Shown piece by piece: positions 1-11,140 of a DNA stretch of 11,140 nt; positions within the stretch are counted from its first letter, which is position 1; each line of letters starts with the position of its first letter. The notes below the pieces were generated by a model. The model was given only the letters and a program-made list of their open reading frames with translations, searched no databases and was not told the DNA's origin. The stretch is from IMG/VR virus record IMGVR_UViG_2667527953_000001; one strand, given 5' to 3'. Both the position numbers and the translations under genes were made by a program. Origin of the DNA: a virus (Monodnaviria; Loebvirae; Hofneiviricota; Faserviricetes; Tubulavirales).

Positions 1-102
1 AAACAAAACGTTACGGCCACACGGAAGAGGAAGCACGATTTAAAAAATAGCTAAAGGAATGTAGAGTCCCGACAGGATTAACAACATCAGCTCAGAAAAA
101 CC

Positions 103-243
103 ATGCACGACATGATTCTGGATTTACTAATGAAATACCTGATTGCCGGTAGTCTGTTCGGCATGTTTTTGTTCAGCGTCATAACAATAGTGTTGCCAAT
201 CGTCCTGAGGGCACACAATAAAATCAACAGAAGCAACGACTGA
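103..243 (+). CDS. Small hydrophobic membrane protein (46 aa), diverged paralog of the 8919..9074 product
   Basis: ATG at 103, TGA at 241-243; not in ORF track (too short). Translation MHDMILDLLMKYLIAGSLFGMFLFSVITIVLPIVLRAHNKINRSND has one predicted TM segment. Aligns with the 8919..9074 protein (shared ILDLL.K...GS..GM..FS.IT.VLP.V...HNK) although the DNA has diverged, which argues for selection on the protein. No clear Shine-Dalgarno. Confidence 0.4.
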   Translation: MHDMILDLLMKYLIAGSLFGMFLFSVITIVLPIVLRAHNKINRSND

Positions 244-252
244 ATGCACAAC

Positions 253-280
253 AGTGCGCACAATGGCGTTATGTATAAAA
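253..280 (+). promoter_or_regulatory. dif-like Xer recombination site (arm A of composite attP)
   Basis: AGTGCGCACAA-TGGCG-TTATGTATAAA resembles E. coli dif GGTGCGCATAA-TGTATA-TTATGTTAAAT (XerC arm, central region, XerD arm). Identity with copy 2 starts abruptly at 251. Confidence 0.55.
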
Positions 281-317
281 AGGCCGCTGCGGTGGAAAGT
301 ATCGCAGCGGCCTTTTC
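277..317. terminator. Bidirectional rho-independent terminator hairpin inside attP
   Basis: AAAAA-GGCCGCTGCG-(11 nt loop)-CGCAGCGGCC-TTTT: 10-bp GC-rich stem (282-291 / 303-312) flanked by an A-run and a T-run; lies between convergent pIV (minus) and the small ORF (plus). Confidence 0.7.
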
Positions 318-318
318 A

Positions 319-348
319 ACATAACGCATGTCACATTATGCGCACTGA
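319..348 (-). promoter_or_regulatory. Inverted dif-like site (arm B of composite attP)
   Basis: Minus strand reads AGTGCGCATAA-TGTGACA-TGCGTTATGT. The XerC-like arm (336-346) is complementary to 253-263 with one mismatch, and 319-326 is complementary to 267-274, so the single strand can fold into a forked hairpin. Confidence 0.5.
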
Positions 349-396
349 CGTTGTGGTAGGTAAACTGAGATGCCGCGTCCTGATAATCCCGGTCGG

Positions 397-992
<596 letters not shown>

Positions 993-4044: not shown

Positions 4045-5408
4045 CAGAGTTTTACCTCACGTTCAAATAATGTACGGCGAGAAATAACAAAAACGCGTAA
4101 CATGGTTATCATATAAATAGCATATTCAAGAACAGAACGAACATAATCGTCATAAGCTTTTGCAAAATGGCTTGTATCAATCTTGAAATTAATAGCGCCA
4201 ATCAACGGAAGATCAAAGCTAAATTGTAAAATAAAAGGAAGAGCAGTTCCATTATTTGTATTTACCAGTTTGTCAATATTAACTGTAAGCCAATTGTTAT
4301 TATCATGACTCTCACTTCCCTGTCCTGGCAAGTAATGCGAAAGCTCCCCTAAAGGGAAATCCCCATCAGGCAAAGAAGAAGCTATATTCTGACTAATATC
4401 TTTAATACCATTGTCCAGTGAATTTAATGCATTATTCATATCAGCCTGAGAAACAGAAAAAGCATTATTTAAATCATTCACTGACACCCATATTGTTTTT
4501 AACCAGCCCAAAATACCATCAAGCCAGCCATTGTCATCGCCGGATGAGCCACCGGATCCTGAACCTGAACTACCGCTACCGGATGAACCGCCGGAGCCCG
4601 AGCCGGAGCCACCGCTACCGGATGAACCACCGGAGCCAGAACCTGAACCACCACTGCCGGATGAGCCGCCGGAACCCGAGCCGGAGCCACCGCTACCGGA
4701 TGAACCACCGGAGCCAGAACCTGAACCACCACCGGAACTGCCGCCGCCTGGGTTACCACCACCGGAACTGCCACCACCTGAGCTACCGCCATCCTCCTTA
4801 CCATCGGAGAATGCAGGATCTACAGCAACTGGTTTCCAGTCGGCAGTACAAACTGTATCATCATCGGGATTACAAATAAGAGGATTACCGGTTGCCTCAT
4901 AAATACACCCCTGCACATTAACATAACGGGTCCCGTCATCACCTTTATAAACATCAGAAAAAGTCATACCATCAAGAACCGGACGAGAAAGACAAATCTC
5001 GTCAGTTGGCGGCTTATTATATTCAGGTGTCAAATCCCCCTCACCACCCTGAAAAGCAAGGGTGCAGGCTGTCCACTTTTGCTTGTCTGAATCCCAGACT
5101 TTATATGCTGACCACCGGGCACGGACAAAAGACCCGACAGTCGAAGGTGCATTAACAGGCGTTGAAAGTGGCACACCACAATAATGAATTATTCCGGAAC
5201 ATGCGTCATAACTGCCCGAACCACAGAAAAGATGACCGGCCGCCCTGGCTAATTTAATCGACGTCCCCGCGTCCGAATAATCTGTCCTGCAGGATGAATG
5301 GCCTGCACACTGAACAAGTGCATCCGGATTTTCTTTCTCTTCAGCGAAAGAAAACGAGGAAAAGAACAAAAACAGAAGCGGAATAATAAAGTGAATCAAA
5401 CAAAACAC
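4044..5408 (-). CDS. Minor coat / adsorption protein pIII-like (454 aa)
   Basis: N-terminal signal-like hydrophobic segment, Cys-rich N-terminal domain, about 100-aa Gly/Ser linker (GGSGSGSGGSSGSGG units) and a C-terminal domain with a hydrophobic anchor, immediately after pVIII. The 5408 start is GTG with the AGGA directly adjacent; TTG three codons downstream has better spacing, so the exact start is uncertain. Confidence 0.7.
   Translation of the reverse strand: MFCLIHFIIPLLFLFFSSFSFAEEKENPDALVQCAGHSSCRTDYSDAGTSIKLARAAGHLFCGSGSYDACSGIIHYCGVPLSTPVNAPSTVGSFVRARWSAYKVWDSDKQKWTACTLAFQGGEGDLTPEYNKPPTDEICLSRPVLDGMTFSDVYKGDDGTRYVNVQGCIYEATGNPLICNPDDDTVCTADWKPVAVDPAFSDGKEDGGSSGGGSSGGGNPGGGSSGGGSGSGSGGSSGSGGSGSGSGGSSGSGGSGSGSGGSSGSGGSGSGSGGSSGSGSSGSGSGGSSGDDNGWLDGILGWLKTIWVSVNDLNNAFSVSQADMNNALNSLDNGIKDISQNIASSLPDGDFPLGELSHYLPGQGSESHDNNNWLTVNIDKLVNTNNGTALPFILQFSFDLPLIGAINFKIDTSHFAKAYDDYVRSVLEYAIYMITMLRVFVISRRTLFEREVKL
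4496..4800 (-). repeat. Internal direct repeats encoding the Gly/Ser-rich linker of pIII
   Basis: About 78-bp repeating units (for example ccgctaccggatgaaccaccggagccagaacctgaacc at 4613 and 4691); this explains the spurious Pro/Glu-rich antisense ORFs at 4418..4902. Confidence 0.8.
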
Positions 5409-6490: not shown

Positions 6491-8638
<2,148 letters not shown>

Positions 8639-8827
8639 ATGAGCAGGAAAAGTATTGGTATAAGCAACGAGAGATATCTGAGAATAGAAAGAGCAGCCGT
8701 AGATATCACAGCCAAAACAGGAAAAGTCACAAAATGGTCGGAGATCGTGAATTATCTGATAGATGAATATTTAAACGATGCAAAACAAGATATGATTTCG
8801 AAAAATGAAATTACACAAAAAAAATAG
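8639..8827 (+). CDS. Small ribbon-helix-helix-like DNA-binding regulator (62 aa), candidate phage repressor
   Basis: ATG at 8639 with AGGAG 8 nt upstream. N-terminal KSIGISNERYLRIERAAVD...KWSEIVNYLIDEYL fits a beta-strand plus two helices as in Arc/CopG/MetJ. Divergent from the replication gene, like rstR versus rstA in CTXphi. Confidence 0.65.
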   Translation: MSRKSIGISNERYLRIERAAVDITAKTGKVTKWSEIVNYLIDEYLNDAKQDMISKNEITQKK

Positions 8828-8918
8828 TAATCACAAAACGATTTGGCGATTGCTAGAAGAGCAAAAAGTACCACCCGTGGTACAAAAGTGCAGTATTACA
8901 TGATTGCTAAAAAGCAAT

Positions 8919-9074
8919 ATGCAGACAACCAGTGACTTAATTCTTGACCTGCTGATAAAGCATTTTGTTGTTGGCAGCATCACAGGCATGACAATATTCA
9001 GCCTGATAACGCTTGTCCTACCGTTGGTGATGACCATACACAACAAACTAAGTAAGGACACTGAAATCCTTTAA
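8919..9074 (+). CDS. Small hydrophobic membrane protein (51 aa) between regulator and attP
   Basis: ATG 8919 to TAA 9072-9074, not in ORF track. MQTTSDLILDLLIKHFVVGSITGMTIFSLITLVLPLVMTIHNKLSKDTEIL has one TM segment; paralog of the 103..243 product. Confidence 0.5.
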   Translation: MQTTSDLILDLLIKHFVVGSITGMTIFSLITLVLPLVMTIHNKLSKDTEIL

Positions 9075-9079
9075 GGTTC

Positions 9080-9107
9080 AGTGCGCACAATGACGTTATG
9101 TATAAAA
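9080..9107 (+). promoter_or_regulatory. dif-like site (arm A of attP, copy 2)
   Basis: AGTGCGCACAA-TGACG-TTATGTATAAA; same as 253..280 apart from one central-region difference (TGACG versus TGGCG). Confidence 0.55.
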
Positions 9108-9144
9108 AGGCCGCTGCGGTGGAGAGTATCGCAGCGGCCTTTTC
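9104..9144. terminator. Bidirectional terminator hairpin inside attP (copy 2)
   Basis: Same hairpin as 277..317 (one loop SNP, GGAGAG versus GGAAAG). Confidence 0.7.
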
Positions 9145-9145
9145 A

Positions 9146-9175
9146 ACATAACGCGTGTCACATTATGCGCACTGA
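9146..9175 (-). promoter_or_regulatory. Inverted dif-like site (arm B of attP, copy 2)
   Basis: Counterpart of 319..348 with one SNP (ACGCGTG versus ACGCATG). Confidence 0.5.
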
Positions 9176-9226
9176 CGTTGTGGTAGGTAAACTGAGATGC
9201 CGCGTCCTGATAATCCCGGTCGGCAC

Positions 9227-11140
<1,914 letters not shown>

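Follow-up and report, generated by a model that had tools for sequence, protein, structure and literature searches.

A cassette-like lysogeny region with a small membrane-protein gene beside attP in a dif-integrating filamentous prophage of Escherichia coli

The DNA analysed here, IMG/VR virus record IMGVR_UViG_2667527953_000001 (11,140 nucleotides, hereafter the window), is Escherichia coli chromosome with filamentous (inovirus) prophages in tandem at dif. The phage genes run on the minus strand in the order gpA-like rep, single-stranded DNA (ssDNA)-binding protein, small coat genes, pIII, pVI, pI/Zot, 339-bp tandem repeats and pIV, and the plus strand carries just two phage open reading frames (ORFs), at 8639-8827 and 8919-9074. 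An original prediction had joined these two ORFs into a module of a ribbon-helix-helix (RHH) regulator and a 51-amino-acid (aa) membrane protein beside attP, with a role in immunity, superinfection exclusion or toxicity, and both ORFs do exist at these coordinates. On one side they are bounded by the gene for a P2 gpA-like replication endonuclease (6491..8491, minus strand; Pfam PF05840, E 9e-49; phrog_91), whose GTG start at 8491 is that of the RefSeq coding sequence in locus L001 and whose transcription points away from the regulator. On the other side lies a CTX-type attP (9080..9173) composed of a dif-like site (9080-9107, plus strand), a GC hairpin (9109-9139) that is a candidate bidirectional terminator, and an inverted dif-like site (9141-9173, minus strand). 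It is followed by the pIV secretin gene of the next prophage copy (9227..10435, minus strand, stop at 9227; Pfam PF00263, phrog_1012). The stop codon of the small ORF (TAA, 9072-9074) ends 5 nt before the dif-like site at 9080. An attP of two inverted dif-like sites, together with a tandem prophage at chromosomal dif, marks the element as a CTX-type integrative mobile element exploiting Xer (IMEX), and a CTXphi-style attP was noted earlier for YpfPhi (PMC4266046). The region is thus a known lysogeny/accessory arrangement of dif-integrating inoviruses, with a regulator of a known kind.

The regulator gene (8639..8827, plus strand) starts with ATG, has an AGGAG 8-12 nt upstream and encodes a 62-aa protein of the RstR family (phrog_2503, E 1.1e-28 over 60/65 positions) that we describe as a putative RHH-like repressor. 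It shares 41-45% aa identity with proteins annotated as RstR in CTXphi variants, pre-CTX and VAI1/2 phages, and tblastn from it reached genes annotated as RstR or RstR-like, with E values of 4e-8 to 1e-7. The gene layout is also of the RstR type, in that the rep start at 8491 (minus strand) diverges from the regulator start at 8639 (plus strand), with repeats in the shared promoter region. The claim that the regulator is placed like the CTXphi repressor was therefore not only confirmed but strengthened by homology to annotated RstR proteins and by the operator-like iterons that the gene faces. YPO2273 of YpfPhi, which occupies the same position, has been described as an RstR homolog (PMC4266046). 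A protein identical to the window regulator is found on 251 contigs, is named TraY by one source, and belongs to a family that also occurs in Vibrio, Pasteurellaceae and other phages lacking the small ORF. Phage If1, which does not integrate, has an unannotated 67-aa homolog with 41% identity (1474-1677 in L006, the "major intergenic region" of U02303.1), adjoining ORFs that resemble transposase remnants.

The RHH assignment fared less evenly. An RHH fold is plausible for the regulator, given an AlphaFold2 monomer model in which an extended N-terminus (residues 1-9) precedes two helices (10-27 and 33-61; predicted local distance difference test (pLDDT) 82) and a best Protein Data Bank sequence match to ParG (1p94, E 0.091) that covers helix B alone. 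Searches of Pfam and NCBIfam with hidden Markov models (HMMs), however, gave no match for the regulator, hhalign comparison with Arc and CopG gave low probability, and fold searches with the model were non-specific and uninformative.

Between rep and the regulator, an interval of 147 nt holds an operator-like array of 8-bp-periodic RTGCAM iterons in groups of three and five copies (8517..8606). The double-unit pattern RTGCAMNNRTGCAM has four matches against 0.06 expected, all at 8517-8590 and nowhere else in the window. The array is kept in Photorhabdus and Providencia relatives with the same regulator, and phages with another regulator allele have different repeats in its place. Because the iterons are unique and linked to the regulator, they fit an allele-specific repressor-operator pair like RstR/ig-2. 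Their sequence and position make them putative binding sites of the regulator, which would then repress rep and confer allele-specific immunity.

The small ORF (8919..9074, plus strand) encodes 51 aa with an acidic N-terminus and a single predicted transmembrane (TM) segment at about residues 16-38. Its hydrophobic core has a mean Kyte-Doolittle (KD) value of 2.1 over residues 16-34, a strong TM segment as had been anticipated, and AlphaFold models the protein as a single helix (pLDDT 85). We distinguish three diverged types of this ORF: A (51 aa, 8919-9074), B (46 aa, 103-243) and C (57 aa, found for example in the relative L002). The types share 29-50% aa identity and the invariant motif ILDLLxK...G...P (an I-L-D..K...G...P pattern), and each has one strong hydrophobic segment (KD 2.1-2.6), so that the one TM segment expected of a small inner-membrane exclusion protein is present in all three; types B and C have basic C-termini. 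All types also hold the same position, with the stop codon 4-12 nt before attP. Of the 15 IMG/VR loci that have exactly this attP, 13 include the small ORF and two, L035 and L099, lack it. Between types, nucleotide identity is 46-58%, synonymous sites are saturated, indels come in multiples of three, and the nonsynonymous proportion of differences (pN) is below the synonymous one (pS) in every comparison. The ratio of nonsynonymous to synonymous change (omega) is 0.41 within type A (window allele against the L017 allele) and about 0.24 for A against C. On this comparative evidence of kept frame, motif and position, with pN < pS, the small ORF is a genuine protein-coding gene, and the earlier description of it as a conserved single-TM gene next to attP holds for types A, B and C alike.

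The family appears confined to dif-integrating inoviruses of E. coli. An exhaustive HMM search of 1.84 billion representatives with an A+B profile returned the A and B clusters alone, and a word-indexed search with an A+B+C profile returned nine proteins, every named one of which is from E. coli. No match was found by tblastn in 50,697 phage records, and nothing rose above noise in Pfam, NCBIfam, PHROGs or PADLOC. The Prokaryotic Genome Annotation Pipeline (PGAP) omits type A in 12 of 12 complete genomes, and type B is also unannotated. A type-C ORF (91.7% identity) is present on a 9613-bp circular "plasmid" of strain JNE25-005 (L121, NZ_AP045060.1), together with a helix-turn-helix (HTH) regulator, fragmented phage genes and an IS3 element; this is probably a poorly assembled extrachromosomal replicative form disrupted by an insertion sequence (IS), and we gave it no weight.

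A 91-nt spacer (8828..8918, plus strand) separates the two genes and contains a palindrome, GTACCACCCGTGGTAC (8868-8883), and an inverted repeat, ATTGCTAAAAAGCAAT (8903-8918). The ORF is listed from an in-frame TTG at 8904, and its conserved start is the ATG at 8919. The start codon had been described as embedded in the inverted repeat; the repeat is real (ATTGCT-AAAA-AGCAAT, with 6-bp arms), but it ends just before the ATG and so does not enclose it, and other type-A alleles lack it. The reported lack of a Shine-Dalgarno (SD) sequence is likewise true of the window allele, where an A-rich stretch and the inverted repeat precede the ATG, but not of other alleles, in which the same ATG is preceded by GAGG, AAGGA or AAGGGGAAG. 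The 5' region of the small ORF folds no better than shuffled sequences (z score -1.2), and an Rfam scan of the whole window gave a sole match, of the attP hairpin to a plant miRNA model, far below threshold. We found no plus-strand terminator between the regulator and the small ORF, and in L013-L016 the gap is about 63 nt, with an SD. Since the genes share a strand with no intervening plus-strand terminator, and some alleles have short, SD-bearing gaps, the sequence makes it most likely that the small ORF is co-transcribed with the repressor.

Other features of the spacer vary among relatives. The palindrome at 8868-8883 is followed by a T-run on the minus strand only, so it is terminator-like there alone; it could halt read-through from pIV/attP antisense into the regulator, and it is not kept in other alleles. 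The sequence ATTGCTA occurs twice in the spacer and was considered as an extra operator, but this frequency is within chance and the candidate was rejected. Many relatives carry a conserved GC-rich, C/T-rich, imperfect long hairpin (CCGCACCGC...GCGGTGCGG) between the regulator or cargo and the small ORF (L002 10770-10870, L003 11880-11990, L028, L029 and L099), which may act as a signal for packaging, as an origin or as a hotspot of recombination; the window's 91-nt spacer lacks it.

The regulator and the small ORF are not inherited as a fixed pair. The window regulator is found with type A, or with type C plus a TolA-domain gene, in E. coli genomes and IMG/VR contigs; the L003-type regulator allele pairs with type A, B or C; two further RHH-like alleles pair with type A variants; and HTH (cI-like) regulators pair with type B or C. 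In some relatives a 62/82-aa ORF or a GC-rich spacer of about 300 nt lies between the two genes. With such re-assortment of the two genes' types, with HTH regulators ahead of the ORF in some phages and with cargo in between in others, there is no cognate pair, and the dedicated two-gene module of the original prediction is not supported.

The second copy in the window, at 103..243 (plus strand, 46 aa, type B), had been taken as a diverged paralog and as a sign that the module is functional and evolving. It is indeed a homolog, with 50% aa identity to type A, but it is the final gene of a different, neighbouring prophage, which removes that argument. The ORFs that precede attP in L003, L019, L020, L078 and L111 match it at 100% identity, and window positions 35-300 match, at 99.6% identity, the end of another prophage family whose rep is RstA-like. 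Just upstream, 2..49 (plus strand) encodes the C-terminal end (TKRYGHTEEEARFKK, then stop) of an HTH, cI-like regulator of the left-hand prophage, matching the 162-aa HTH regulator of L029 (...KTKRYGYTEEE...). The match to phages with RstA-like rep and this HTH C-terminus together assign 103-243 to the neighbouring prophage. The junction between the two prophages follows at 253..346, with a dif-like site (253-280), a GC hairpin (282-312) and an inverted dif-like site (314-346), and window 252-535 is 99% identical to 9079-9362.

A sibling phage (L025, NZ_CM128606.1 3159233-3177324) is 96-98% identical to the window phage in rep and in the structural and assembly genes through pIV. Its integration site is between ybiB and hcxB. 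An IS110-family transposase lies immediately upstream of rep, a DUF2726 gene marks the opposite end, and the phage is present in several genomes, with up to nine matching places in one genome. In this IS110 sibling, homology to the window is lost exactly at 8485 and resumes at 9227, and the regulator, small ORF and attP are absent. These borders indicate that operators, regulator, small ORF and attP were exchanged as one unit, and the sibling's lack of 8486-9226 indicates that the structural module can exist without the small gene. Window 8486-9226 thus behaves as a swappable lysogeny cassette of a XerCD/dif-integrating filamentous prophage. The type of small ORF also follows the type of pIV and pIII: type C always occurs with an L002-type pIV and an IKe-like pIII, across three rep/regulator backgrounds, type A with the window-type pIV/pIII in 8 of 9 cases, and type B with the L003-type pIV/pIII in all three. 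Such tracking would be expected of a route-specific exclusion factor or of a morphogenesis partner.

The slot between regulator and attP holds other genes in relatives. In L002 (NZ_CP157093.1) and three other complete E. coli genomes, a gene between the regulator and the small ORF (L002 10372-10737) encodes a 121-aa signal-peptide protein with a TolA C-terminal domain (PF06519, 50.5 bits, E 2e-13). We found no paper on such a TolA-domain protein of a filamentous prophage, which may act in the periplasm as a decoy for the pIII-N1/TolA interaction. Downstream of the regulator, two other dif-associated inovirus contigs carry defence-like genes: L031 encodes a 370-aa CAP12/Pycsar-type Toll/interleukin-1 receptor (TIR) protein (PF10137, E 3e-23) and L067 a 264-aa DpnII/MboI-like nuclease (PF18742, E 7e-59); the PADLOC matches for this cargo are PycTIR and PDC-S35 (both for the TIR protein) and Aga-REase. 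Other dif phages of the group have further genes in the slot, for a 140-aa multi-TM protein, signal-peptide proteins and lipoproteins, as well as an ORF of 111 aa, and variable accessory ORFs at these positions have been remarked on for related phages (PMC7307601, PMC4266046). With recognisable anti-phage cargo in relatives, the slot behaves like a defence or exclusion hotspot on the lysogeny side, which suggests that filamentous prophages hold such a hotspot between regulator and attP.

Based on these comparisons, we tentatively favour the reading that the small protein is a repressor-linked inner-membrane factor, expressed in the lysogen, for superinfection exclusion or defence. In a lysogen, the repressor would sit on the iterons, silencing rep while regulating and driving its own transcript. 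With no plus-strand terminator in the spacer, that transcript would run through into the small ORF and end at the attP hairpin. The peptide would insert into the inner membrane with its N-terminus out and C-terminus in, a topology predicted from the positive-inside rule in types B and C, and there block or blunt a superinfecting phage. The favoured step is filamentous-phage DNA entry at pIII/TolQRA, and the TolA-domain cargo of relatives would be a decoy in the periplasm for that entry pathway. The small gene would then not be a dedicated partner of the repressor but one member, nearest to attP, of a variable cargo slot in which relatives carry anti-phage or envelope-targeted genes. It has been shown experimentally that hypothetical proteins of inoviruses exclude other phages (PMC6813254), and YpfPhi lysogens are partly protected from superinfection (PMC4266046). 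Among the roles originally proposed, exclusion or immunity would thus be the best-supported guess, given the TolA-domain, TIR and DpnII-like genes in the slot of relatives.

Several points weigh against this interpretation. The small protein has no homology to any characterised exclusion protein in PADLOC, Pfam or NCBIfam, the window allele of its gene lacks an SD sequence, and the RHH membership of the regulator is plausible but short of proof. The positional association with defence genes is only suggestive, and a simple cargo model leaves unexplained why the small gene keeps its fixed last place before attP even beside other cargo. The link to pIV/pIII type comes from few, related, non-independent genomes and may equally be plain linkage, because the small ORF, attP and pIV adjoin one another in the circle of the phage genome.

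The small protein could instead damage membranes as a toxin, be it an addiction or abortive element or a peptide like PftP4 of Pf4; the regulator or poor translation would keep it silent, and it would stabilise the prophage or kill cells under some condition. Its size and single TM segment resemble those of type I toxins, and a toxic membrane peptide of 33 aa is encoded by Pf4 (PMC11769263). In the window allele the SD is missing and the start directly follows a small hairpin, and the terminator-like hairpin on the minus strand (8883-8868) could end an antisense RNA; other alleles, however, have good SDs and no hairpin, and neither the minus-strand hairpin nor the upstream regions are conserved. 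Type C weakly matches the Fst model (E 0.039), but its 13.8 bits fall short of the cut-off of 26. A small ORF behind an RHH protein looks superficially like an antitoxin-toxin pair, yet one regulator allele pairs with A, B and C, HTH regulators occur with B and C, genes or about 300 nt intervene, and the regulator family is widespread without the small ORF. The cognate, co-inherited adjacent pair of a type II toxin-antitoxin system is therefore lacking, and no known toxin family emerged above noise from Pfam, NCBIfam, PADLOC or PHROGs. The conserved antisense RNA or 5' fold-back of a type I system is lacking as well, with no Rfam family, upstream regions that differ wholly between alleles and the fold z score of -1.2. 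Because co-variation, a known toxin family and a conserved antisense element are all missing, a toxin under a cognate regulator, as once suggested, is unlikely. The possibility that the ORF is not expressed as a protein, and that its conservation reflects a DNA or RNA element beside attP, would agree with its omission by PGAP and with the missing SD of the window allele. It is extremely unlikely, because motif, hydrophobic profile and frame persist although synonymous sites are saturated, indels come in threes, independent upstream contexts supply SDs to the same ATG, and the RNA fold is unremarkable.

A role in the phage's own membrane life cycle, as a partner of pIII, pVI, pI or pIV that damps assembly in lysogens or assists entry or extrusion, would explain why small-ORF type tracks the structural module. 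Small-ORF type is indeed more closely correlated with pIV/pIII type than with the rep gene or the regulator, the gene and pIV are contiguous across attP, and the acidic N-terminus, TM segment and basic tail resemble inovirus coat and membrane proteins. This role is nevertheless improbable: the gene is transcribed opposite to all morphogenesis genes, the IS110 sibling lacks it despite rep, pIII, pI and pIV that are 96-98% identical, and two phages with the same attP and pIV also lack it. Local alignments of the small protein to pIII, pVI, pVIII, pI and pIV were no better than shuffles, apart from hydrophobic signal-peptide noise, and in sequence the small protein resembles none of the membrane proteins of the phage itself. 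Modulation of pI/pIV assembly, as raised in the original prediction, gains no support from a sibling that is 96% identical and lacks the gene. The protein might also be a Xer-recombination factor, for example a membrane protein acting on FtsK/XerCD that favours integration or shields the array from excision. Every type invariably lies 4-12 nt from the XerC arm of attP, the gene is lost along with attP in the IS110 sibling, and the family has been seen in dif-integrating phages only. Such a factor is very unlikely, since 2 of the 15 phages with the same attP have no small ORF, unrelated genes occupy that place in other dif phages, CTXphi-type integration requires host XerCD and folded ssDNA alone (PMC3442271), and the protein has no domain hinting at contact with protein-DNA complexes or recombinases.

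There is also a slim chance that the small protein is not ordinary cargo but a positional hallmark of this attP, a membrane-anchored factor acting on the FtsK/XerCD machinery of the division site or, type-specifically, on the pIII/TolQRA entry complex. If so, dif-integrating filamentous phages would depend on it for control of their integration, their entry or the stability of their arrays, and Xer recombination or inovirus import would have a phage-encoded modulator of a new kind. Stacks of filamentous prophages at dif are a common feature of pathogenic E. coli, Yersinia and Vibrio, and their attP-proximal ORFs have repeatedly been reported as "unknown". The comparisons made here show the regulator-to-attP interval as a swappable cassette, with anti-phage cargo in some relatives and a tiny membrane protein in many others. 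They yield a cheap hypothesis, exclusion by a 46-57-aa peptide, which if true would help to account for the co-residence of particular filamentous phages in arrays and for the origin of hybrids.

The remainder of the window follows the same organisation. Locus L001, which is 99.3% identical to the window, carries two prophage copies between the canonical dif, which adjoins ydeQ-side fimbrial pseudogenes, and hipA at the array's other flank. On the minus strand of the window lie the genes for the ssDNA-binding protein (6460-6035), pIII (5408-4044) and pI/Zot (3668-2457). The pIV gene at 9227-10435 is intact, unlike the left-hand copy (336-992), which has an internal deletion and three 145-bp direct repeats of its own 5' region and reflects either a genuine rearrangement or an error in assembling the array. 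The 339-bp tandem repeats between pI and pIV span 1031-2443 (about 4.2 copies) and 10474-11140 (at least two copies), and the IS110 sibling has a single 57-nt copy of this element. The first ~70 nt of each unit show 80-93% identity to more than 5000 plasmids, mostly small and ColE1-like, and we take this part to be the ColE1/pBR322 primosome-assembly (pas/ssi) region; on that assumption the repeats are a candidate multiplied minus-strand origin. Within pIII, 39-bp tandem repeats (4540-4773) encode a Gly/Ser-rich linker of GGSSGSGGSGSGS units, and a variable linker of the same kind has been reported for g3p of UPphi.

The regulatory part of the locus most resembles the RstR/ig-2 system of the CTXphi group, which likewise has a small repressor gene divergent from the replication gene and beside attP, and whose divergent promoters are accompanied by allele-specific repeat arrays. 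In El Tor and classical, the alleles studied best, RstR is an HTH protein of about 112 aa, whereas the regulator family described here has about 62-70 aa and a strand-helix-helix profile, and the rep gene is P2 gpA-like, not RstA. With RHH regulators such as ParG, CopG, Arc and TraY, the regulator shares a predicted extended N-terminus followed by two helices, a G-x-x-T/S turn motif and iterated short, operator-like sites. The small protein resembles type I toxins (the Hok, Fst and TisB class) and Pf4 PftP4 in length, in its single TM segment and in the weak ribosome-binding site of some alleles, but it lacks a conserved antisense RNA or fold-back and sits at the end of a putative regulator operon. 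Exclusion proteins of the Pf4 PfsE and HK97 gp15 type are also tiny single-TM proteins of a resident prophage that block a membrane step of the incoming phage, although the small ORF differs from them in genomic position and has no sequence similarity to them. PfsE acts on PilC of the type IV pilus, which is irrelevant to the small ORF. In position alone, the small ORF can be likened to the attL-adjacent ORFs YPO2271/2272 of YpfPhi, orf1/orf1a of CUS-1 and h3-h5 of UPphi, reverse-strand ORFs that match it in place and orientation. They lie between regulator and dif-derived site, vary from phage to phage and are of unknown function (PMC4266046, PMC7307601); the literature on YPO2271/2272 gives no function. 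L002 carries three such accessory ORFs, as described for UPphi901.

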